27,814 nt of DNA from a virus (taxonomy: Duplodnaviria; Caudoviricetes): positions 1 through 27,814 of IMG/VR virus record IMGVR_UViG_3300025103_000121; one strand, given 5' to 3'. The position numbers and the translations under genes are program-made. Position 1 is the first letter of the stretch. Every line of letters begins with the position of its first letter. A model generated the notes under the pieces. That model saw only the letters and a list, made by a program, of their open reading frames with translations, was not told where the DNA came from and made no database searches. Shown in pieces: positions 12,685 to 25,056 of this stretch.

Positions 12685-15600
12685 TTGGCTGAACCACAAC
12701 AATGGTCCCCTAAGATGGAAGAAGACCAGATTAGAGGGGTCATAGACCAATACAATAAGCAACCTCAGCTATTTGATGGCAGAGATGATGACCTTGAATC
12801 TCTAGAGGAACACGCACACTACTATAGAATACCTTTTACTCGTACTAAAGAGCATCAGGATAACTATGTGATGAGTATCCTTAAAAATGCTGGGCAAGGC
12901 TGGGCAGAAGGATTCTCTACACTTCCACTAGCTGGAAAAGCAGAACCAAAAGATACTTGGCAAGCAATAGCTAATAACCTAGGACACTTAGCAGGTTTTG
13001 TAGGATACTTACCCGGTGGAAGAGCATTAAAATCTTTAGGTGTACTAAAGTCATATACAAAATTAACAGATGGACTTCGTGGTGTATCTGTTCCAATGGC
13101 AGTTGCTAGTAAAGCACAAGGTGTAGTTGGAAAAGCTATTAGACCTATATTAAAAGACTTACCAGAATGGGCAACTTCAGGTATTGTTGGAGATATGGCA
13201 CAGGGTGCTTTCCATTTAGGTACTGCTAGTGCTGTGTCAAGTTGGACTCACGGCATAGATGAGATATTTCATTCAGCAGGATTTGGAGCTGTTGCAGGTA
13301 GTGCTTTTAGAGGCATTGGTAATATGAAAGGCTTTGGTCAAAGAATTAATATGAATCAGATGAAGCCTAATGGTAGTCCTGATTTTTCAAAAATAAGTGA
13401 TGGACAAAAGGCTGACTTGGCTTTAAGGACTATGGCAGGTGCCGCTTTTCAAGGGTTACCTTCTACCTTACAAGGAGCTACTACTGAAGAGCAAGTCTAC
13501 GCATATGCAATGGGTTCTTTCTTTGGATTTAAAGAAGTACCTTATCAAACTAGAACCGCCAGAGAATTTCTAGCAGAAAGTTTTAAAGAAAAATATGGTC
13601 CAGACCCAGAGATGAATCCAAAATGGGATTCTCTTACTTCTGAAATGAAAGAAATCGTGAAGATGGATTTCCAAGAAACATTTCAATACTCTGCTGAAGG
13701 ACCTAGCGAAACATCACACCTCTTATTTGATTTATTAAGTCATCCAGATAGAAAGATGGACTTAGATGCTATTGAAAAGATAGCTAGAGAGTATGGTGAA
13801 TCATATGAGGTTGACCCAGTTACAGGAGAGATTAACGCCAAAGCATTAAGTAAAAAGGAATTAGACGAATATAAAGAAGACTTTATAAAAGAAGGTAGAG
13901 CTGATAACCCAGAAGATTTAGATATGCACATTCAAGCTATCGCAGATATTCCCGGTAGGCTAGTAGGAAAAAATGGCTATGTAGAACAAGTGTTCCCCGA
14001 GTTATCAACTGTAGAAAGAATAGATATAGCTGACGCTATATTTAAAAAATGGAAAGGACTACAAAATGAAGACTCAAAACCAATCCCGGGAGCAGAGCAA
14101 AAAATCATTAGCTTTATTGAAGAAAATTATGGAAGGAAGCTCACGGACAATGAACAAGGATGGTGGAGACGTTGGGCTGAAACTAATAGAAAAAAACAAT
14201 GGGTGGAACAAGTTGAAATCAAAGATGAAGAAGTTGGAATACTTAATTCTAAAACCAACTCAGCAGGAAACAAAAAAGACCTCTCTCAAGAACCGCTTAT
14301 TATCCAAAGTCTGCACGATGCTGAATATAAGAGATTAAACGGTCAAGACCCTGACCCTCAAGACCATTTCTTTAGGGTATTAGACCACGTTATCTTTAGA
14401 GGTAAGGAACACGACTTAAAAAGAGCTGAGCAAAATATTGCTAGGCAGGAAATGGTTCGTATACAAAACTCTAAAGAAAGAGACCTATATGACTATGATA
14501 CATTAAGAGACCACGTTGAAGGTTATGCTAAGAATCATATGGAAAATGTGATGAAGAAACTTCACGAAAAGATGTGGGAAGATGGTTACTATTACTTTGG
14601 AGGTAAGGGTGATGCTAAGAAGATGTTCTTTGTTAAGATACATCCGGGTTTAAAGAAGCCACCTAAGTATGACCCCGTTACTAACAAGCCTTTGCCACAG
14701 GAATTTAAAAGAGGTATTGTTAAAAAGGTTCTTAGAAAGATAAGAAAAGTTCTTAGAGATAATGGTACTGAAAATGTTAGAAGAGCATATAGAGAGGGTA
14801 GAGATGAATGGAAGAAAATGTATCCGGGTATTGAGAATGCTAATGAGATGTATGATAGGATGTTTGTATCCAATGCCTTATATGATTTAACTAATAATGG
14901 TTACAGTACAAAGATTAAAGATTTAGATGCGGGTTTAAAAGATGTATTAGGACCGGGGTTTATTAATGACCCTAAAGCTTTTAATAAGAGGGCACAAATC
15001 TGGTTTAATTCAGGTTTATCAGCTAATCCAACTGAAATTTTCAAGCATATGAGGAAAGTTCTTGGAAATGATAATGATTTTATGGGTTCAGATTTCCGGG
15101 TAGGGATATTCTATGATGCCGATGGTAGACAAAGTATAAAATACTTTGACCAAAAGAAATTAACAACTGAATCTGAGGCACTAAAGTATACTGAAATAAC
15201 TGATGGTGCTATAGTAGCTAGAAGTGAAGTTGTTGATGCTTTAAATTTAGACAAAGGTCTGCCTACTGATGGTGGAATGAATAAATCATTTATTGTATCT
15301 CCAGATGCGGTTAATGGTGCTTTACTAGGTAAGTATGCTATACATAAAGCATCCCCAGAATTAGAAGCTTATATGAGAGAGAACAAGATTCATATGCTAA
15401 TGCCAGAGTCTGCTGTTAAGCAATCGGGTAAACGTAAAGATTCTGCTGGAGACTTGCAATCTCATATAGATTATGACACAGGAGAAGTATCTATCAGTTT
15501 TGATGGTACACCTTTTAGACTACCTGCGGCTCATTTTAGAACCGTTATGTCTGAAATCACTACAAAGAAGATGTTAAAACCATCTCAACTCCCAAAACAG

Positions 15601-18600
15601 ATGTACTCCGTATTGTCCTCATATGGCTTTAAAGGTATTGAAGCAGAGGCTATGAAGGATATGTATCAAACTCTCTCTGAGAAGGCTATTAAAGGGACTC
15701 CTGAAGGTCGTGAGAAGTTAGAAGAGTATATGAGGAAGCGGGATACTAAAAGTATTGAAGATGTGGTAGAAAATCTCGAAGAAATACCGATAAATAAACT
15801 CTTTGAATTAATAAGGGACCCTGAACATCCTAAACTATCACAGAAACTTTATGAAAAGATTTTAAAAGTTAATCACGAATACGTAGAAGCCTTAGCAGAA
15901 GAAGGTGAAGTATCTAGAGATGAATTGGAGATGTATAAAGAAAAGGTAGCTGATTACGAAAGCGTTATAGAAAGATTAAGTAAAGTCTTTCCAGATGGCT
16001 CCGTAGGTGCTTATATGCATAAGTTCTCTAGAGATTATCGTATGCAGGCTATGCGTAATTATGTGGTACAGAAATTAACTAGACCCAGAATTGATAATAG
16101 TGCGTCAGCTAGAATGAGACCTTATGAAGTAGGGTTCCATAATCATCCAGAAATGGCAAAGCTAAATACTAAAGAAGGACAAGATATGTTCTTTTTAGAT
16201 GAAGGATTCAGAGAGCTTGTTATTAAAGATGATATGTTTAGAGGTGGACGTATAAAGTTAGGTGAATTATGGGAGACTAGGGAAGAGTATACAGGGGTAC
16301 TTAAAGATAAGATAGACCAGATACTTCACGGATTAGTAATGCGTGTTCCTATGGACTCGATATCTGGAGCTCATAGTCTCAAATTTCAAGGGTTTACTGG
16401 AGTAGATGGGTTAGGAGCCTTATTACACCCAAGAACTATGAAAGCCCTAGGTGGTGCAGATTTAGATGGTGATAAAGCAACTATATTTTTTGGTGGAGAA
16501 AGTCACGGATTTAAACAGAAGTGGCGTGAAATGTATCACGGTGCTAAAGATGAGTATGTAGACCCTGTAACTAAAGCTGAAAAACATAATAAAGAAGCTA
16601 TAGACCCTAAGACAAAGCAGTCTTATAGAGATGATTTAGCTATTAGAGATGAAGATACATTAGAGAAATCCTATCACCCTACGGCACAATACTCTCCTTA
16701 CTGGAGAGAATTTATGAGTAGAGGTGCTTATGGTGGTCGTGATATGTTGGGAGTTGCAGTTACAAGAAGAATGGCTGTGCTTGGTGCTTATGACGCAATA
16801 AGGTCTTTTGATATTGATGGTAAGCAAGGATATGAAACTCAAGATATTGTTATCAAAGGCTCTGGTAATGTTGATTTACAGAAGGATGGGGAGATTTGGG
16901 TTGAACAAGTTATCTTAAGTAAGGATAAATACAGTGTCCCTTACTATGACAATAAGGATGGTGTTTTAAGAAGGCTTGAATTTGAGATAAGAAAAGGTGA
17001 TGTAGACCTACAAAGATTTAGAGAGCTATCTAGAGCCGCTATTGCACTAGGCTCTGACCCTATGGATGAAGTTGGTTTAAAAGGTGACCTATTTGAAACT
17101 AAGATTTTTGATACTCTTTTTAAAACAAGTGTATATGAGACCAATGAAAAAGGTGTAGCAACAGAGCGTAATGAGAGATTGTCTAGGTATATAAATGAAG
17201 AAGATAGTAAGATAGGTTATTTAAAAAAGAAAGGTTTACACGGGCAGTTCTTAGAGGCTAACTCTTTATTGTATGGTAAAAATCATAGAGATAATAGACG
17301 GTGGAGCTATGCAGAAATCCAAGCGGGTATCCATAAACTTAATTGGTTACCAGAGAGAACCAGAAATACGTTCCTCCCGCAATTAGCAGAATCTATGAAA
17401 GAAATTAATTGGTCTGATAATATCTTTAGACACATTAATGAAGGTGTATTAAATAAAATTTACTTTGACCATAATGAAGTTGTTAAGGGTGCAGATTGGT
17501 TAAAGAATATTATGGGTAGAGAATCTATGGCTACTCAAAAAGGTAGGTTCATCCAAGGTATACTTGATAAGAAACTATATGATGAAGCACAATTAAAGAA
17601 GCTTGCTATGGATGAAGAGGGTTTTATTAAGTTTATTACCTCTGAGTTTACTCGTAAGGATGGCTCTAAAGGTAAGGCTATGGGTCAAATACCTTGGGAA
17701 TTTAAACCATTAAACGCATCAGACTATTATACAAGAAGAGCATATCTAGAACACCTACTCCTTAAAGGTGAAGATTTTTTAGTAAATGATTTAAGTGATA
17801 TGGCATCCTTAAAATCAATAACTGATGTAATAAAGAAAAATAAAATAGGTGATGAGAGGATTGATTACATTCATAAGAAGTCTGATGAAATCAAATCTCA
17901 AGGAGTTCACTTAGCAAAACAAAGGAGAGCTCTAGATGATGCCCTTACTGAACATTATGAAGGTCGTGAAGGTCTTAAAGAAAGTGAAGAACTACGCAAA
18001 AGTTTTGGACTTGACGACAAAAGTACTCAAATCAGTGACCAAATTCAAACGGACAAAGCGATAAGAGATTTTAAAGTAGAATTGTCAGAAGGAGAACGAG
18101 ATTTATTTGATATGTTATTTATGGGAACTTATCAAAGAGCTGACAGAGAAAGAATGAAAGCTATTGAAGCTTATAAAAAGGTTAGACCTGAAGTTGTTAG
18201 AGAGCATAACTACTTATTTAAATCAATGAAGAACACTTCGCTGGTGCGTGCTGGACTAACTTCTAAAGAAATATCTGATAAGAATTTAAAAATCTTCTTT
18301 ACTAATTATGACCACATAATGAAGAAGGCTAAAGTAAATCTATCTAAAGAACAAGAAGAGTTGTTAATGAGAGAGGCTACAGAAAAAGAACCTGTAAAGT
18401 CTTTCTTTGATGAACACGGTAATAAAATTAAGGGAGAATTTGTAGATGCCAATTTAATAAATGATAAAGAACGACAATACCTAGATGAAGTTGGTCCCTT
18501 TACTGGGTTATATAAGGGTGAAATTAAAGACCCTGAGCTACTTAGACTGTATGATAGTTTAACTGAGCACTTATCTCACTATCATAACTTAGATACTGTT

Positions 18601-21486
18601 AATCTAAATGGTTTCTTTAGAGGATTATTTAAGAAAGATATAAATCAAGCTACTAAAGTAGACCTACAACAACTTGACGCCGTCTTTAAAGAGATGAGAG
18701 ATGGTACTTGGTGGCGTAATACTGTAGAATGGCTGACTGGTAAGGATAAGAATCCTGAGATAAAGAAAGCATACTACTGGATGTTCCCTAAAGCTATTGA
18801 TAGAGACTTAATGCGTAACCCTGCTATGATGGAATGGTTAGAGGATGTAGGACCCTTTAAAGATAAGATAGGTAATACTATTGAAAACGCTAGGACAATT
18901 AGACCTACATCAGTTATAGGAGAAATACAACAGTTATCTGCTAGAACTCAAGAGTTATCTATGCAGAAGTTTGAAGAAGAGACTGAATTGTTTAGAGAAG
19001 AGCTTAGACCTTATATTAACGCTGTTGAAGATGGTGACATCTTATTTAAAATAGCAGTTGCTGATAGGGAATTAGGCTATATGAAGGCTAAGTTAAGAAA
19101 AGAATATAAAGCTGATAGTCATAACCTTACAGCTAAGGAGATGGAGTATCAAAATAATTGGAATGAGACTAGAAAAGATTTCGATATGATAAAATATAAA
19201 ACCTATGTGATACCTACTAAAGATGGCAATGTTCAAATGACTGGTGAAGCTATTATAGGTAAAATAAATAATATCATAACTAAGACCAATATGAAGACTC
19301 ATAAATGGTTAAAAGGGGACCCTGAGAAGATTCAAGAATGGCTAAGTATATCTGAACCTAATGGAAGAATAAGCTGGAGTGGTTTAGATAAACTTAGAAG
19401 GAAATTTCACGAATACATTAAAGCTACTATAAAAGAAAATAAGAGTATTCCTATTGAAGATTTAGGGATAGACGGCTTAAGGCAGATTGTTAAAAGAGTT
19501 GCTCTAAGTCAAACCCCGTATGCACTTAGAAGTAATAGGACTTTAAATGAATCTCGTAAAAGATTAAGGATTGATAAGTTTGATGAGACAGGAGACCTTG
19601 GTGCTGAATACTACTTCCCTCATATGTCTTTTAATAGAAAGAAAGCAAAAAATAAATTAAAGGGTGCCGTTAAACATATAATGGAAAACCCTAATATGAC
19701 TCCTGAGCAAAAAGAAAAAGATATTCGTAAGGTTAATCATCAGTTTAAACAACTTACTGGTGACTTTATGGCTAAAGATGATATGGGTGAGAATTTTAAC
19801 CTTATGCAGGATGTGATGCGAGAGATGGCTTTAGGTAAGAAACAGAAAGCTCATAATATTTTAACTAATGATTTAAAAAGAGTTGGTAATCAATTTAGTA
19901 GAGACGCACATATAGGTGGATGGGAGATGACTCCTGAAGCATATGAAGCTTATATGAAAAATGCAATTAGCACTTTCTATAAACAAGCAATGCAATTATC
20001 TGCAAGAACTGCTATGTTTAACTTTAATAATACTTTCTTTAAACAGACTGGTGATGGAAAACTAACTAATAACTGGATGGATTTCTTTAGGTTGTATACT
20101 CAAAGTGCTATGGGTTATCCTACTCATATACCCGAAAGAATAGCGGAAGACCCCGCTATGAAGATAAAAGGTACTGCTTATAAGTGGCTTGCTGATTCTA
20201 CTGCAAAGAAAAGAATTGATTTTATAGGTAAAAAACTTGGGGTGGGTCGTAAAGAGCTTGAACGGATGAAGTTAGATGAGGAAACGATTGATGAATTAAG
20301 TGGAGTAGAGTATAAAACCCTTGAACGATGGGGAGCGAGAGAAGCAAAATGGCAGTTAGCATCCTTATTGGCTCACCCTAAGAGTTCTATTGCAAACCTT
20401 TATGGTGGTACTGTACATACTTGGATAAGTGCAGGCTATGATAACATTAAGAAGGCTAGAAACTTTGAATTTCTGAAGACTAATATTAATCCTAAGTGGA
20501 ATAGTATGAAGGATGTTGAGAAATGGATGCAAGAACTTGGTATCATTGAAGAATTTTTAGTTTATGAGGCTGGTCTTAATCCTAAACTTAAAGGTAAAAA
20601 GACTCAAGCCTTTATTAAAGAGGCTTCGCAACGCATAAGAAGAGACCCTAATATGCCTGATGAAGGCTTACTTGCCTTAAGTAAAAAACACGGTCTAACT
20701 GAAAGAGCTTTCCAAGCGGCGGCATCTTTTATGCGTATACCTGAGCGTATTCTTCGTAGAGATTCGTTTATGGCTCATTATATACAGGCAAAACAACAAT
20801 TTGGTGGAGCTATTAAAGATTATAATAGTCCATTCTTAATAAATTATGCTAAAAAGGGTGTAAAAGGAACTCAGTTCTTATATAGTGCACCTTTTCGTCC
20901 TTTATGGACCAACAGCACTCTGGGTAGGGTTATGTCTCGTTTCCAATTATGGAGTTGGAATAGTGTTCGCTTTAGAAATGACGTAATAAGGCGAGCAGAA
21001 ATTGCAGGTTATCGTCAGGGTACTCCTGAATTTGAAACCTTTAAACGTCTAGCAATGGCTGATTTGTTTATGTTAGGTTTATCTAATGTATTTGCTTACA
21101 GTTTATTTGAAAACGCACTTCCAGCTCCTTGGAATTGGTTCCAAGATACAGCAGATTGGATGTTTGGAGACGAAAAAGCAAAAGAAAGAGCTTTCTATGG
21201 TTCTGCTATTGGACCACTTCAAGCTGTTACACCACCGGCACTAAGGCTATTACCACCTATGTTTAAGTGGATGGTCAGTGGAGACGGAGAACAGCTCGCT
21301 GATTACTACCTTTGGACAATCCCTCCGTTCGGTAGATTAGCACGGGATATAGTAGGTCCCGGTGGAGCCATAGAAAATCCTTATTATGCTATTACAAAAT
21401 TTACTGGATTACCAGTAATGCAAATGGCTTCAGCAATAACTAGTGAGAAAAAAGGAAGAACTCGAGGTAAGTTTATATATGGATAA
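12685..21486 (+). CDS. Giant virion protein containing a single-chain two-barrel (DxDGD) RNA polymerase
   Basis: 2933 aa; ordered motifs TDG (aa 839-841), SAVK (909-912), RVP (1220-1222), GGADLDGDK (DLDGD aa 1259-1263, nt 16459-16473); TTG start with TAAGGAGG; lies in the ejection-protein block. Confidence 0.85.
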   Translation: MAEPQQWSPKMEEDQIRGVIDQYNKQPQLFDGRDDDLESLEEHAHYYRIPFTRTKEHQDNYVMSILKNAGQGWAEGFSTLPLAGKAEPKDTWQAIANNLGHLAGFVGYLPGGRALKSLGVLKSYTKLTDGLRGVSVPMAVASKAQGVVGKAIRPILKDLPEWATSGIVGDMAQGAFHLGTASAVSSWTHGIDEIFHSAGFGAVAGSAFRGIGNMKGFGQRINMNQMKPNGSPDFSKISDGQKADLALRTMAGAAFQGLPSTLQGATTEEQVYAYAMGSFFGFKEVPYQTRTAREFLAESFKEKYGPDPEMNPKWDSLTSEMKEIVKMDFQETFQYSAEGPSETSHLLFDLLSHPDRKMDLDAIEKIAREYGESYEVDPVTGEINAKALSKKELDEYKEDFIKEGRADNPEDLDMHIQAIADIPGRLVGKNGYVEQVFPELSTVERIDIADAIFKKWKGLQNEDSKPIPGAEQKIISFIEENYGRKLTDNEQGWWRRWAETNRKKQWVEQVEIKDEEVGILNSKTNSAGNKKDLSQEPLIIQSLHDAEYKRLNGQDPDPQDHFFRVLDHVIFRGKEHDLKRAEQNIARQEMVRIQNSKERDLYDYDTLRDHVEGYAKNHMENVMKKLHEKMWEDGYYYFGGKGDAKKMFFVKIHPGLKKPPKYDPVTNKPLPQEFKRGIVKKVLRKIRKVLRDNGTENVRRAYREGRDEWKKMYPGIENANEMYDRMFVSNALYDLTNNGYSTKIKDLDAGLKDVLGPGFINDPKAFNKRAQIWFNSGLSANPTEIFKHMRKVLGNDNDFMGSDFRVGIFYDADGRQSIKYFDQKKLTTESEALKYTEITDGAIVARSEVVDALNLDKGLPTDGGMNKSFIVSPDAVNGALLGKYAIHKASPELEAYMRENKIHMLMPESAVKQSGKRKDSAGDLQSHIDYDTGEVSISFDGTPFRLPAAHFRTVMSEITTKKMLKPSQLPKQMYSVLSSYGFKGIEAEAMKDMYQTLSEKAIKGTPEGREKLEEYMRKRDTKSIEDVVENLEEIPINKLFELIRDPEHPKLSQKLYEKILKVNHEYVEALAEEGEVSRDELEMYKEKVADYESVIERLSKVFPDGSVGAYMHKFSRDYRMQAMRNYVVQKLTRPRIDNSASARMRPYEVGFHNHPEMAKLNTKEGQDMFFLDEGFRELVIKDDMFRGGRIKLGELWETREEYTGVLKDKIDQILHGLVMRVPMDSISGAHSLKFQGFTGVDGLGALLHPRTMKALGGADLDGDKATIFFGGESHGFKQKWREMYHGAKDEYVDPVTKAEKHNKEAIDPKTKQSYRDDLAIRDEDTLEKSYHPTAQYSPYWREFMSRGAYGGRDMLGVAVTRRMAVLGAYDAIRSFDIDGKQGYETQDIVIKGSGNVDLQKDGEIWVEQVILSKDKYSVPYYDNKDGVLRRLEFEIRKGDVDLQRFRELSRAAIALGSDPMDEVGLKGDLFETKIFDTLFKTSVYETNEKGVATERNERLSRYINEEDSKIGYLKKKGLHGQFLEANSLLYGKNHRDNRRWSYAEIQAGIHKLNWLPERTRNTFLPQLAESMKEINWSDNIFRHINEGVLNKIYFDHNEVVKGADWLKNIMGRESMATQKGRFIQGILDKKLYDEAQLKKLAMDEEGFIKFITSEFTRKDGSKGKAMGQIPWEFKPLNASDYYTRRAYLEHLLLKGEDFLVNDLSDMASLKSITDVIKKNKIGDERIDYIHKKSDEIKSQGVHLAKQRRALDDALTEHYEGREGLKESEELRKSFGLDDKSTQISDQIQTDKAIRDFKVELSEGERDLFDMLFMGTYQRADRERMKAIEAYKKVRPEVVREHNYLFKSMKNTSLVRAGLTSKEISDKNLKIFFTNYDHIMKKAKVNLSKEQEELLMREATEKEPVKSFFDEHGNKIKGEFVDANLINDKERQYLDEVGPFTGLYKGEIKDPELLRLYDSLTEHLSHYHNLDTVNLNGFFRGLFKKDINQATKVDLQQLDAVFKEMRDGTWWRNTVEWLTGKDKNPEIKKAYYWMFPKAIDRDLMRNPAMMEWLEDVGPFKDKIGNTIENARTIRPTSVIGEIQQLSARTQELSMQKFEEETELFREELRPYINAVEDGDILFKIAVADRELGYMKAKLRKEYKADSHNLTAKEMEYQNNWNETRKDFDMIKYKTYVIPTKDGNVQMTGEAIIGKINNIITKTNMKTHKWLKGDPEKIQEWLSISEPNGRISWSGLDKLRRKFHEYIKATIKENKSIPIEDLGIDGLRQIVKRVALSQTPYALRSNRTLNESRKRLRIDKFDETGDLGAEYYFPHMSFNRKKAKNKLKGAVKHIMENPNMTPEQKEKDIRKVNHQFKQLTGDFMAKDDMGENFNLMQDVMREMALGKKQKAHNILTNDLKRVGNQFSRDAHIGGWEMTPEAYEAYMKNAISTFYKQAMQLSARTAMFNFNNTFFKQTGDGKLTNNWMDFFRLYTQSAMGYPTHIPERIAEDPAMKIKGTAYKWLADSTAKKRIDFIGKKLGVGRKELERMKLDEETIDELSGVEYKTLERWGAREAKWQLASLLAHPKSSIANLYGGTVHTWISAGYDNIKKARNFEFLKTNINPKWNSMKDVEKWMQELGIIEEFLVYEAGLNPKLKGKKTQAFIKEASQRIRRDPNMPDEGLLALSKKHGLTERAFQAAASFMRIPERILRRDSFMAHYIQAKQQFGGAIKDYNSPFLINYAKKGVKGTQFLYSAPFRPLWTNSTLGRVMSRFQLWSWNSVRFRNDVIRRAEIAGYRQGTPEFETFKRLAMADLFMLGLSNVFAYSLFENALPAPWNWFQDTADWMFGDEKAKERAFYGSAIGPLQAVTPPALRLLPPMFKWMVSGDGEQLADYYLWTIPPFGRLARDIVGPGGAIENPYYAITKFTGLPVMQMASAITSEKKGRTRGKFIYG

Positions 21487-21699: not shown

Positions 21700-23320
21700 A
21701 AAGCTTTCAAATAACTCTAAGTCCTTTCTCCCTGATGTAAAGAAGGGCTATAATAAACACATTAAGACTGTAGCTAATGATGTTAGGCGGGATGTTTATG
21801 CTAAGAGCAAGGCTACTATGCAGGATGTCAGTGACTCCTTATTATCTAAAAACGGTTTAGCAACTACTGGTTTAGTAGGTAGTACTGGACTATTAGTAGC
21901 TGATAAAAAAGAATTAATAGACCTTGACTCTGACGGCGTTAAAACAGGTGCCGCTATTATAGGTACTATAAGTGGAGCTCTTCTTGCCGCAGGCTTAGGT
22001 GCTAGAGGTATGAAGACTGTAGTACAAAAGATTAGTAGAGGTAAAGCCTCTAAGGGAGACCTTAGAGGAGCAGGGGTTGGTTTGTGGAGGAATAACTTAC
22101 AACCTGATGCTTATCACGATGTTGCCATACCTTTTTATGGTGGAGGTCCCGCTACACAACTTATGTCTGTAGTAACAGAAATGGCTATGGCGTCTGGACG
22201 TGCTGGTAGGAGATTCTTTAATCCTAAAGAAAGTTATGCTAGTAAAATATCTGGATTACCACAGCATATGGCAAATGATATTACTACATATGAGAAAGCT
22301 GTTAAATCAGCTCAACAAAAGATTGCTGATATAGACCCCAATCTTTATATGGGAAAGGGTGCGGCTAAAGAAGCAGAATATTATAAAGCAATAAAAAATA
22401 TTACTAGACCAGTTACTCAAGCAGAGAAACCTTTACACGCTAAAATGATTAATGATTACATAAACCCCGCTATTTTTAGAGAAAAGCCTAGGCAAGCCCT
22501 AAGTAAATATGCAGAAAGGTTCGTAAAAGAGGTTAATTATAGAGATTTACAGAAAACACACAGAGCTACTATAGGTCCTAAAGCATTAGATAATTTAATT
22601 AAAGCACAAGGTTTGAAACCCGGAGCGGGTAACAAGTACTTTGAATTAACTGGTGCTGGTATGCGTATGGGTGGAGATGTATTAAGAGGTATACAATTTG
22701 ACGCTAGAGCTTATAACCTTTTTAAAAGAGCTCAAAATGCTGGTATGAGTAGGGCTGAATTTATTAAAGGTGCAAAAGAAGCCTTTGGTGATAATGCTGT
22801 GATTCCCCTTACTAATAATAAAGTGCAAATACTATTATCCCCTGCAAGAAAACCCAATATAGACTGGGGTGGTTATGCGGGAACTATAGTATGGGATAAA
22901 ACAAAGCCCGGTAAAGTGGCTTTTATGGCAGATGACTTAAGAGATTTGTTTGGAGTTAAATTAGGTGCTAATGTATTAAACACTTCTCAATCTAAGGTGA
23001 TTAAGATACCAGAGATACTTGAATCTGTTAAAGATAGAGTATTGAAGACTGGTAAGGGTGTTGCATCTGGAAATAAAAAAGAAATGGATGAGCTTGTAGG
23101 TGCTCTTAAAGAAAGTAAGAAAGCTTCAACCTTTGATGTTACTTTTATGACTAAAGGAGATTATAATAATTTATTAGCCATAAAAGATAAACACGTTAAA
23201 GCTTATGGAGATAAAATCCCACTTGAGGATAAGATTGAATTTACTGCTACTAGACTTGGAGCTATAGGTGCTAGTGGCGGCACTGTGGCAGGAGCCTACG
23301 CTTTGGCAACTGACGATTAG
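21665..23320 (+). CDS. Basic hypothetical protein, probable internal virion protein
   Basis: 551 aa, Lys-rich, with Gly/Ala hydrophobic segments near both ends; SD AGGAG upstream; last gene of the + strand arm. Confidence 0.7.
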   Translation: MVNPKTLITAARKLSNNSKSFLPDVKKGYNKHIKTVANDVRRDVYAKSKATMQDVSDSLLSKNGLATTGLVGSTGLLVADKKELIDLDSDGVKTGAAIIGTISGALLAAGLGARGMKTVVQKISRGKASKGDLRGAGVGLWRNNLQPDAYHDVAIPFYGGGPATQLMSVVTEMAMASGRAGRRFFNPKESYASKISGLPQHMANDITTYEKAVKSAQQKIADIDPNLYMGKGAAKEAEYYKAIKNITRPVTQAEKPLHAKMINDYINPAIFREKPRQALSKYAERFVKEVNYRDLQKTHRATIGPKALDNLIKAQGLKPGAGNKYFELTGAGMRMGGDVLRGIQFDARAYNLFKRAQNAGMSRAEFIKGAKEAFGDNAVIPLTNNKVQILLSPARKPNIDWGGYAGTIVWDKTKPGKVAFMADDLRDLFGVKLGANVLNTSQSKVIKIPEILESVKDRVLKTGKGVASGNKKEMDELVGALKESKKASTFDVTFMTKGDYNNLLAIKDKHVKAYGDKIPLEDKIEFTATRLGAIGASGGTVAGAYALATDD

Positions 23321-23370
23321 TCGCTTCCTGTCGTTACTCGTATTTTAATTTGTTACCTTGGACAGTAATT

Positions 23371-23399
23371 GGGGAGCTTGATTGCTCCCCTTTTACTTT
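23371..23399 (+). terminator. Intrinsic terminator at the convergence of the two arms
   Basis: GGGGAGC-TTGATT-GCTCCCC followed by TTTTACTTT. Confidence 0.85.
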
Positions 23400-23400
23400 A

Positions 23401-23589
23401 TTAGTTGTTTAGTCTTCCCATTGCTATCCAGAATAACTCTGGAGTAAGACGCTTTAAATTGCTTTCTCTACTCCTTGTAGCCATTCTCCCGACATATTGA
23501 GCGAGTTCATATTGTATCTGGTCCATTGTACCAGCACCTAGTTGAACTCCTTGCTCTTTAAACAACTCCTTTATTTGTGATTTCGTCAT
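23401..23589 (-). CDS. Small histone-fold-like protein (62 aa)
   Basis: SD AAGGAGG; short helix SQIKELFKEQG, long central helix, KRLTPELF L2-loop/alpha3-like end; resembles bacterial histones by eye. Confidence 0.65.
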   Translation of the reverse strand: MTKSQIKELFKEQGVQLGAGTMDQIQYELAQYVGRMATRSRESNLKRLTPELFWIAMGRLNN

Positions 23590-23612
23590 AAGTCCTCCTT
23601 GTTGTTATTAAA

Positions 23613-23676
23613 GACAGGAGCAGTCAAACCTAGTAGGTAAGGAAAGGACCCTTCTACATCAAAGACTGCTCCCATC
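23613..23676 (-). ncRNA. Stem-loop with pyrimidine-rich loop
   Basis: 13-bp stem GAUGGGAGCAGUC/GACUGCUCCUGUC with two G-U pairs that form only on the - strand; inner GUAG/CUAC helix around UCCUUUCCUU. Confidence 0.55.
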
Positions 23677-23690
23677 AGATTTAAATTTGT

Positions 23691-23729
23691 GGCAGGGGGG
23701 AAAGGTTTGGGAGGATATTACCCCCTGCC
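23691..23729. ncRNA. GC-rich hairpin with anti-SD (- strand) or SD-like (+ strand) loop
   Basis: GGCAGGGGG/CCCCCTGCC perfect 9-bp stem; the 21-nt loop reads UAAUAUCCUCCCAAACCUUUC on the - strand. Confidence 0.55.
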
Positions 23730-23759
23730 GTATGACCTACACAGTCATTAATCGAAAAA

Positions 23760-23932
23760 TAGTGAATGACCCGGTGTCCCCCGCAAACTTGAGCTAACAC
23801 GGTCTGTTTCTCATCGTTACGATATTAGCCGTAATCAATTTCAACGTCCTAACATCTTGCGTTCACTGTCCCTTGGGCGAAGCCCTTTGCAACAGGTCTG
23901 TGCCGGTTTTATGCACATCTTTGCATTCACTA
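23760..23932 (-). ncRNA. Candidate multi-helix, pseudoknotted ncRNA (~173 nt), family unrecognised
   Basis: Closing stem UAGUGAAUG/CAUUCACUA, several internal helices, an 8-bp loop-to-strand pairing, no ORF in the track, GC-richer than the flanking genes. Confidence 0.6.
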
Positions 23933-23944
23933 AGGTCTAATTCT

Positions 23945-24077
23945 TTGTGGTCTCATAGTTAGCCAACCATTCATTTGCCATCCTAATTTCTTTTGTTCAT
24001 AGATTTCTCAAGACCTAAGTCCATCTTTGTCCTCTAATCACTCACTCGAAACTACGAGAGTTAATGTGAGACCACAA
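23945..24077 (-). ncRNA. Candidate ncRNA (~133 nt) closed by an 11-bp stem around a purine-rich interior
   Basis: Perfect inverted repeat TTGTGGTCTCA (23945-23955) / TGAGACCACAA (24067-24077); internal CUCG-UAGUUU-CGAG hairpin. Confidence 0.5.
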
Positions 24078-24079
24078 TT

Positions 24080-24568
24080 CTAATCGCAGTTACTCCCCGG
24101 TATACACTTTGTAGGTGGTACCAATGGGCTGTCGTTTTCATCTCCGGGGTCGTGTGGACCTATGTTGTGGATTTTATTAATAGGATTATCTGTTTGACCT
24201 ATTCTTTTATCCTCTTCGTGTCCCCATTTACTCCCTTCTTTTAATGCTGATATTAAAGAATGTATCTCATTAGCTGTTACTAGTGAGTTTTCTTCATACG
24301 CATTAGTGTGGAGATTGTGTAACCCTTGTATTATGTACTCCATTTCCTGTACTTCTACCTTAAAGGGTTTATTTTGCTTATCTTGTTCCAGCTCTAATAA
24401 ATAAGCAGTTAAATATACTGTGAGGTCTAGTACCTCGTCTATCGCTTCTTCAAGGTTTGTTAAGCCTCTTTCACGCTGTATAGGTACTTCACGTTTATAT
24501 TCTTCCTGTCCTTTATCTAGTCGCTCTTTAATAAGAGTTATTATTTTCTTATTTACGCCGTCCATCAA
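24080..24568 (-). CDS. All-alpha NTP pyrophosphatase (MazG-like) domain protein
   Basis: ERLDKGQEEY...LEEAIDEVLDLTVYL gives the acidic ExxD helix pattern; SD AGGAGG; ATGA overlap with the HNH gene. Confidence 0.5.
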   Translation of the reverse strand: MMDGVNKKIITLIKERLDKGQEEYKREVPIQRERGLTNLEEAIDEVLDLTVYLTAYLLELEQDKQNKPFKVEVQEMEYIIQGLHNLHTNAYEENSLVTANEIHSLISALKEGSKWGHEEDKRIGQTDNPINKIHNIGPHDPGDENDSPLVPPTKCIPGSNCD

Positions 24569-25056
24569 TAGCGTCCTCCTTTTGCTAGTTTCTTCATTAC
24601 ATAGGCACTTAACTCTTCAGGTAAGTCTCCTACAAGTTGTATTAATAATTGAAAATCTTCCTCATTCAATGGACCTTTACGGGTATTGCAGGTCTTGCAG
24701 ATGAGTTGCAGGTTTTTAGTGGTAGATGGTCCACCCTTGGAAAGTGGTATAATATGGTCACAAGCAATAGTTCTAAATGTCAACTGCTTATTACAATATA
24801 TACACCCCTTTCCATAGGTGACATAGAACAATGTTCTTATCTCCCCAGAAGTTATGTCGAATTTGACTCCGTATTGTTCACTACGCCGCTTGAGAGAACT
24901 CTTAAGAGAACTCATTTTTGAGGCTAGTTTCTTGTATGCCTTTTGCCAATACGTTTTATGTATCGGTTCAAGGACCTTTTCAAACTCCTTCTTAGATGGG
25001 GGAGGTAATGTGGCGTCTCTTAGCATGAGGTAACTTAATCCATTTTCTATACGCAA
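24565..25056 (-). CDS. HNH endonuclease
   Basis: CIYC...CDHIIPLSKGG...NLQLICKTCNTRKG canonical motif; start may be ATG 25026. Confidence 0.92.
   Translation of the reverse strand: MRIENGLSYLMLRDATLPPPSKKEFEKVLEPIHKTYWQKAYKKLASKMSSLKSSLKRRSEQYGVKFDITSGEIRTLFYVTYGKGCIYCNKQLTFRTIACDHIIPLSKGGPSTTKNLQLICKTCNTRKGPLNEEDFQLLIQLVGDLPEELSAYVMKKLAKGGRY

Follow-up and report, generated by a model that had tools for sequence, protein, structure and literature searches.

RNAs C and D of bacteriophage T4 sit in a tRNA cluster. Both are small phage-encoded RNAs, produced late and without a known function in the available part of the source (PMC9697503). For the crAss-like phage phi14:2, the accessible part of the report describes abundant and lasting early long non-coding RNAs, also of unknown function (10.1101/2020.03.07.982082). 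The manA, wcaG and abiF motifs of cyanophages are structured motifs of 100-200 nucleotides (nt) found in marine phages (PMC2864571, PMC9964418), and such motifs can cluster, three of them lying within about 820 nt in S-CREM1 (PMC9964418, PMC9602691; these sources in excerpt). The raiA motif RNA, as presented in the available sections of two papers, acts in trans, has its ends joined by a closing stem and has no known function (PMC12968392, PMC10861870). Here, we analyzed a 173-nt RNA domain, module B, on the - strand of IMG/VR virus record IMGVR_UViG_3300025103_000121 (Duplodnaviria; Caudoviricetes), positions 1 to 27,814; this whole stretch, referred to as the window, is a phage contig of 27.8 kb with a completeness of about one half. 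B is likely one member of a gene-free row in which RNA modules are exchanged. Phage non-coding RNAs without a known function are on record as single cases; this row is undescribed, and the interest of the finding lies more in the row than in the fold proposed for B. Full-text literature searches gave no account of this locus; in the readable supplements of a viral structured-RNA catalogue (PMC10690425) the contig names and motif words were unmatched, and modules A or C described below may be present in its larger files.

Module B lies on the - strand within 23590-24079, a gap of 490 nt that is longer than any other gene-free stretch in the contig (the next measures 179 nt), flanked by genes for 162 and 62 amino acids (aa) and located near the meeting point of two gene blocks. 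The gap is tiled by four closing stems and constitutes a row of four stem-closed modules, with the following elements in the order of the - strand:

23945..24077, - strand, module A, conserved and covarying, with an 11-base-pair (bp) closing stem, beginning right after the upstream stop codon and carrying an invariant GGUUGGC near its 3' end
23933..23944, - strand, 12-nt linker from A to B, spanned by an RNA-library contig
23760..23932, - strand, module B, a stem-closed multi-branch RNA domain of 173 nt, GC content 0.47 against 0.37 for the contig
23732..23749, - strand, small hairpin after B
23691..23729, - strand, module G1, a G/C-rich stem with a C/U-rich loop
23610..23678, - strand, module G2, a long stem with a C/U-rich loop and a close homologue in L075/L203

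The row shares with the phi14:2 RNAs its location in a long gene-free stretch inside an early, replication-gene block, and the parallel gains some weight from the likely virion RNA polymerase (DxDGD motif) of the window phage. Unlike the row, the phi14:2 RNAs were demonstrated by RNA sequencing, and a modular, swappable make-up is undescribed for them in the available part of that report; a phage-wide blastn search, the sole sequence comparison bearing on phi14:2, returned no match of B. RNAs C and D of T4 are likewise phage non-coding RNAs without a known function, but they are late, and neither tRNA nor tmRNA genes were found in the window. For the manA, wcaG and abiF motifs no model match was obtained. 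They accompany metabolic genes; in the row, by contrast, the gene that follows is not constant and the modules swap at one slot. B resembles the raiA RNA in size and in the closing stem that joins its ends, but lacks the three-part P1, the partner of the pseudoknot PK1, the linker word and a model score.

Module A is conserved and covaries strongly in related phages. Related loci were gathered via the two flanking genes and short patterns, and A was found behind the same upstream gene in 33 distinct sequences including the window (32 others). The covariation alignment comprised 24 of these 33, after exclusion of one near-duplicate and eight divergent sequences. Nineteen of the 26 predicted pairs vary on both sides and 96.1% of the cells pair, a level reached by none of 500 column shuffles, with slid alignments giving 37-47%. 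One-sided changes such as G-C to G-U assign module A to the - strand. The A of the window is the most diverged member, with one helix absent.

What follows A is exchanged between relatives. The spacer set held 34 distinct sequences, 33 besides that of the window, some of them near-duplicates. Among the 33, module C was found behind A in 19, module D in five and C/U-loop hairpins in eight, with nothing in four; other folds occurred as single examples in L003, L013 and L085, and the L075/L203 row holds about seven distinct stem-closed modules. B itself was present in none of the 33. Each module has its own closing stem and is joined to the next by a short A/U-rich linker. In module C, 13 of 29 pairs covary among 17 sequences, and in module D 8 of 20 pairs among three sequences, though the folding z-score of D, -1.5, equals that of B. 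Searches with Rfam over the row modules gave no family, only chance-level matches in 20 related loci (E 1) and in the L203 row. One locus combines a conserved, covarying anchor RNA with at least eight partner modules that vary between relatives, none matching Rfam. The first gene behind the row also differs among relatives, which argues against gene-specific cis control.

Module B occupies this slot and is predicted to fold on its own. A preliminary description, made without database searches, had named eight pairings, all of which were found in their places on the - strand. The parts of B are:

5' arm 23924..23932 pairing with 23760-23768, - strand, closing stem P1, nine unbroken Watson-Crick pairs, from folding
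23899..23917, - strand, hairpin P2, UGUGC/GCACA, with a 9-nt loop, from folding
23866..23895, - strand, hairpin P3, CUGUU/GACAG, with an internal loop and a GGGC-UUC-GCCC cap, from folding
23782..23861, - strand, domain closed by P4, CGCAA/UUGCG, from folding
23817-23834, - strand, hairpin P5, UUACG/CGUAA, from folding
23793..23800, - strand, proposed and unproven pseudoknot strand, partner of loop 23822-23829 through 8 pairs, two of them U-G

Pair probabilities were mostly 0.9-1.0 for P1, P2 and P3, about 0.7 for P4 and 0.47 for P5. The nine Watson-Crick pairs of the closing stem stand at the two ends of the slot and exceed chance: in only 5 of 5000 dinucleotide shuffles of the 195-nt slot between the neighbouring modules did a Watson-Crick helix of at least 9 pairs connect its first 25 nt with its last 25 nt. 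When B was folded together with its neighbours, 51.4 expected pairs were internal and 0.23 external. No stop-free reading frame crosses B; frames of 39 and 36 codons were found near its 3' end. A discrete domain with these boundaries is supported because B fills a slot that holds stem-closed modules in relatives and is predicted to pair almost only internally. B is likely to be a real, discrete RNA module, bounded by its closing stem and without a family match.

The pseudoknot of the preliminary description, in which the 8-nt loop of P5 pairs with 23793..23800, fared less well. In 84 of 1000 shuffles some hairpin loop could form at least 8 pairs with a strand outside it, and in 726 of 1000 at least 6; the real B scores 6 by the shuffle rule, a G-U pair closing the loop to 6 nt. 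The geometry of an H-type knot does not allow every base of an 8-nt loop to pair. Within the P4 domain two nested folds compete, predicted at -47.3 and -47.2 kcal/mol, formed either by H1 (23856-23821) plus H2 (23813-23790) or by a long rod ending in P5 (23834-23817). Keeping the loop and its partner strand free costs 5.3 kcal/mol and the pseudoknot helix gives back 6 to 11, with an initiation cost of about 7 to 10 kcal/mol for pseudoknots. By this nearest-neighbour estimate, the pseudoknot would be a few kcal/mol worse than the nested folds and is disfavoured; because the energy model omits tertiary contacts, it could form despite this deficit. With complementarity common in shuffles, competition from two equally stable nested folds and no homologues for testing, we consider it doubtful that exactly this pseudoknot is formed. 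The hexamer UGUUAG occurs twice in B (23854, 23799), one copy on each side of the P5 loop and each complementary to it, and may be a switch or a coincidence. The other long-range pairing that had been put forward, GACCUG/CGGGUC, is present in the sequence and has a pair probability of only 0.00-0.03; its forced formation costs about 4 kcal/mol, and it clashes with P3, whose CUGUU/GACAG helix also requires the CUG of GACCUG.

B was compared with known RNA families, beginning with those that the preliminary description had named. The whole window gave no Rfam match at the cut-off, and around B only chance-level matches appeared at E 10. The covariance models of raiA (RF03072, cut-off 101.3 bits), manA (RF01745, 55.2 bits) and c-di-GMP-I and -II (RF01051 and RF01786, 35 and 53.5 bits) found nothing at E 10 in the contig; raiA was also silent in five related records and in cmscan. 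The likeness to raiA or manA in size and topology is thus not borne out by the models, and the diagnostic parts of raiA are absent. The P1a-P1b-P1c arrangement with its GU and GGU bulges is missing from B, where GGU precedes the closing arm and the 4 nt before it find no partner beyond the 5' arm. The B word closest to the raiA UUAGACGUAA linker is 3 edits off, as near as in 1907 of 2000 shuffles, and the 6-bp PK1, which joins an upstream hairpin loop to the strand before the linker, has no upstream 6-nt partner in B. Nor does B lie upstream of a gene for sugar, nucleotide, chaperone or photosynthesis functions, as manA does; the gene downstream of B encodes a 62-aa protein without a family match.

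Self-cleaving ribozymes of known classes (hammerhead, HDV-like, twister, pistol, hatchet, hairpin, glmS) gave no Rfam match, and a home-made scan with core words and an HDV descriptor, run without a positive control, found no complete core, neither a hammerhead core with stem II nor an HDV-like arrangement. The HEARO/omega RNA model (RF02033) was matched in none of five records, including an identical phage copy. A solitary CRISPR repeat was considered for 23862-23893, which matches CRISPR-DR36 at 11.2 bits (E 4.9, cut-off 38), and was rejected; the hairpin would need a 2-nt loop, and the segment had no repeat-array match in plasmids or phages. A T-box reading of modules A and C, suggested by a UGG bulge and a loop-E motif, was also discarded, as the window contains no UGGNACC and the implied tRNA identities conflict. 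Resemblances to RNase P, to group II domain 1, to the hairpin ribozyme and to rRNA loops, also considered, received no model support.

A hint of expression came from RNA libraries, in which the following segment was covered:

23804..24036, strand not given, RNA-library contig of 234 nt, present once in each of two RNA runs from a single sample

It is 98% identical to the phage (5 differences) and spans the greater part of A together with three quarters of B; the single change listed inside B, at 23909, falls in the P2 loop. The two runs held no other sequence like the phage within 22500-25500, with the flanking genes uncovered. We take the contig as a weak hint that A and B are expressed.

Altogether, we are moderately confident that B is self-contained and exchangeable, one RNA module of the gene-free row near the end of the replication-gene block of the phage, likely co-transcribed with its neighbours, and predicted to be a stable accessory RNA acting in trans. 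A group of uncultured marine phages carries such rows at one fixed position. The row would be transcribed within the - strand replication-gene block, from the upstream genes; each module would fold behind its own closing stem, and trimming at the short linkers would release the modules. These may persist as stable RNAs and act in trans on host factors, with B as an accessory, cassette-like member. The data establish the row and its position, the covariation of A, C and D, the module exchange and the boundaries of B, and transcription, processing and the trans role are inferred. B is predicted to serve as a decoy or scaffold for a host factor early in infection. A ribozyme or a riboswitch is less likely than a trans-acting RNA because no known ribozyme core was found in B and no expression platform ties it to a gene.

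Several observations weigh against this interpretation. The folding energy of B is ordinary (z-score -1.37, with 17 of 200 shuffles equally stable; second estimate -1.5) and falls within the range of four coding controls (-0.3 to -2.9). The discrete structured domain proposed earlier is supported as to its boundaries, given the slot context and the self-contained pairing, and not as to an overall energy beyond chance. No homologue of B was found besides identical copies of the phage, which leaves B itself without covariation. The RNA evidence comes from one sample, in contigs without strand or ends which may derive from DNA, and the runs were found using the same stretch; moreover, the contig crosses the A-B linker and gives no sign of the release of B. 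No partner is indicated by experiment or comparison; the trans role is argued from exclusion and analogy. Finally, neither a host nor a cultured relative was found, genome searches giving two chance matches only.

The searches for homologues of B covered several kinds of data. Blastn found none in phages and plasmids, and blastn with nhmmer none over the fetched loci. A single-sequence covariance model returned no homologue from 38 sources and only the identical copy from 50 whole virus records; over 15 loci without filters its best score was 11.5 bits, on plain hairpins. Patterns of three words, chosen by guesswork, matched 32 and 19 stretches in viral contigs, each set with one self match and the rest unrelated, mostly coding DNA, and no match in genomes. 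Judged from these sequence searches, B appears rare in the phage group and need not be unique, because they are weak for a diverged family and would miss one.

The alternatives can be ranked by how they meet these data. A bolder version of the preferred explanation would make the locus a plug-in library of RNA-only effectors at one socket, with a constant anchor RNA and exchangeable folds traded like anti-defence genes; B would then have a novel fold, bistable or pseudoknotted, and would either bind a defence factor or signal of the host or catalyse a reaction. We regard this as unlikely. If RNA effectors are indeed exchanged like accessory genes, new RNA folds could be drawn from this one compact locus, which would also allow a direct test of how phages use RNA-only tools.

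That B is a neutral or decaying insert, with its inner helices including the pseudoknot arising by chance, would agree with the missing homologue, with z-scores of -1.4 to -1.5 and with pseudoknot-like complementarity in 8-73% of shuffles. However, chance hardly accounts for a closing stem placed at the slot ends (5/5000), and the same design recurs in other modules of the slot, two of which covary. The raised GC content and the 98% identical variant in the RNA library also speak against an insert of this kind, which seems distinctly unlikely.

Quite improbable, too, is a cis-acting sensor, riboswitch-like or a protein-sensing leader, in which fold switching of P4 controls the small downstream gene. 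The two nested P4 folds of equal energy and the two UGUUAG copies for one loop would suit such a device. The proposed cis-regulators manA and wcaG of cyanophages, as described in the available part of the source, provide a precedent (PMC2864571). However, 160 nt and two stable modules separate the end of B from the ribosome site, B is predicted to pair with nothing outside, and a search of 23200-24700 found no - strand terminator. The gene behind the row varies, and no Rfam riboswitch was matched.

The preliminary description had called B ribozyme- or riboswitch-like, a label that finds neither a known catalytic core nor an expression platform tying B to a gene. A self-cleaving ribozyme of an undescribed class, cutting the row into separate RNAs, would supply the processing that a row of RNA modules requires; the size, multi-branch fold and possible pseudoknot of B fit small ribozymes generally. 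Besides the silent Rfam models and the core scan, all 33 other rows do without B, and the contig from the RNA libraries continues through the A-B linker into B, three quarters of which it covers, making this proposal very improbable.

Least credible is a remote derivative of raiA or c-di-GMP-I, or a solitary CRISPR repeat acting as an RNA anti-CRISPR, for which the raiA-like GGU immediately 5' to the closing arm, the presumed resemblance of P3 to c-di-GMP-I and the 11.2-bit CRISPR-DR36 match are outweighed by the silent models, the absent P1c and PK1 partners, the distant linker word, the 2-nt loop and the missing arrays.

The other modules showed features of their own. Module A was found in L003-L019, L028, L033, L057, L071, L075, L085, L115, L119, L131, L204, L213, L215, L219, L221 and L229, with a size of 90-190 nt and a minimal form in L213. 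An A-like GGUUGGC segment also occurs in a distant phage (L095:1240-1500), and in distant phages (L099:1220-1470, L102, L104, L095:1240-1500) the same small gene is preceded by a non-coding, stem-rich stretch. Module A is a better probing target than B, and alignments already exist for A, C and D.

Module C (L007:3137-3246 and 18 other spacers) is rod-shaped and about 105 nt long; two of its strands are nearly invariant and, in our reading, form a loop-E-like motif. It always stands last before the ribosome site and has a large insertion in L075. Module D (L004:3140-3228, L033:955-1043, L229:1243-1332 on the - strand) is compact, about 85 nt, and its invariant 5' strand could pair with a loop triplet. 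At some D loci a short palindrome precedes the module, its sequence varying and its palindromy kept. Module E (L013:3184-3282, about 100 nt) has a 9-nt loop word in common with P2 of B; a likeness to a minimal raiA or HEARO was not supported by either model. The seven-module row spans 950 nt (L203:1528-2480, the same as L075:374-1330). Long stems (window 23610-23729 on the - strand; L003, L004, L005, L016, L018, L075, L131) end in C/U-rich loops that resemble anti-Shine-Dalgarno sequences and could pair with host ribosome-binding sites.

The + strand block of the window encodes an endolysin, a metallo-phosphoesterase and very large orphan proteins, and the - strand block a primase-helicase, a Gp157/Gam-like protein and an HNH nuclease. 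The immediate surroundings of the row are as follows:

24080..24568, - strand, upstream gene of 162 aa with no assigned function, which anchors the array in relatives
23594..23600, - strand, Shine-Dalgarno-like AAGGAGG of the downstream gene, from sequence
23401..23589, - strand, downstream gene of 62 aa, conserved in the phage group, with a three-helix model of weak likeness to histone folds
23371..23390, + strand, terminator-like hairpin at the convergence of the two gene blocks, from the terminator scan

No terminator was found on the - strand in 23200-24700. A sigma-70 promoter scan gave two sites against a shuffle mean of 2.9, which is uninformative if a phage polymerase transcribes the block. 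The 2933-aa protein (12685-21486, + strand) had no match among solved structures; it carries a DxDGD motif (DLDGD, residue 1259), its likeness to two-barrel RNA polymerases has the strength of a lead, and it is likely a virion RNA polymerase. The 62-aa protein had no family match and 95 relatives; many histone folds were listed among its structural matches, the best being a bacterial histone at a non-significant E of 1.5. The relatives come from contigs with ocean-survey names and from a hydrothermal-vent RNA sample.
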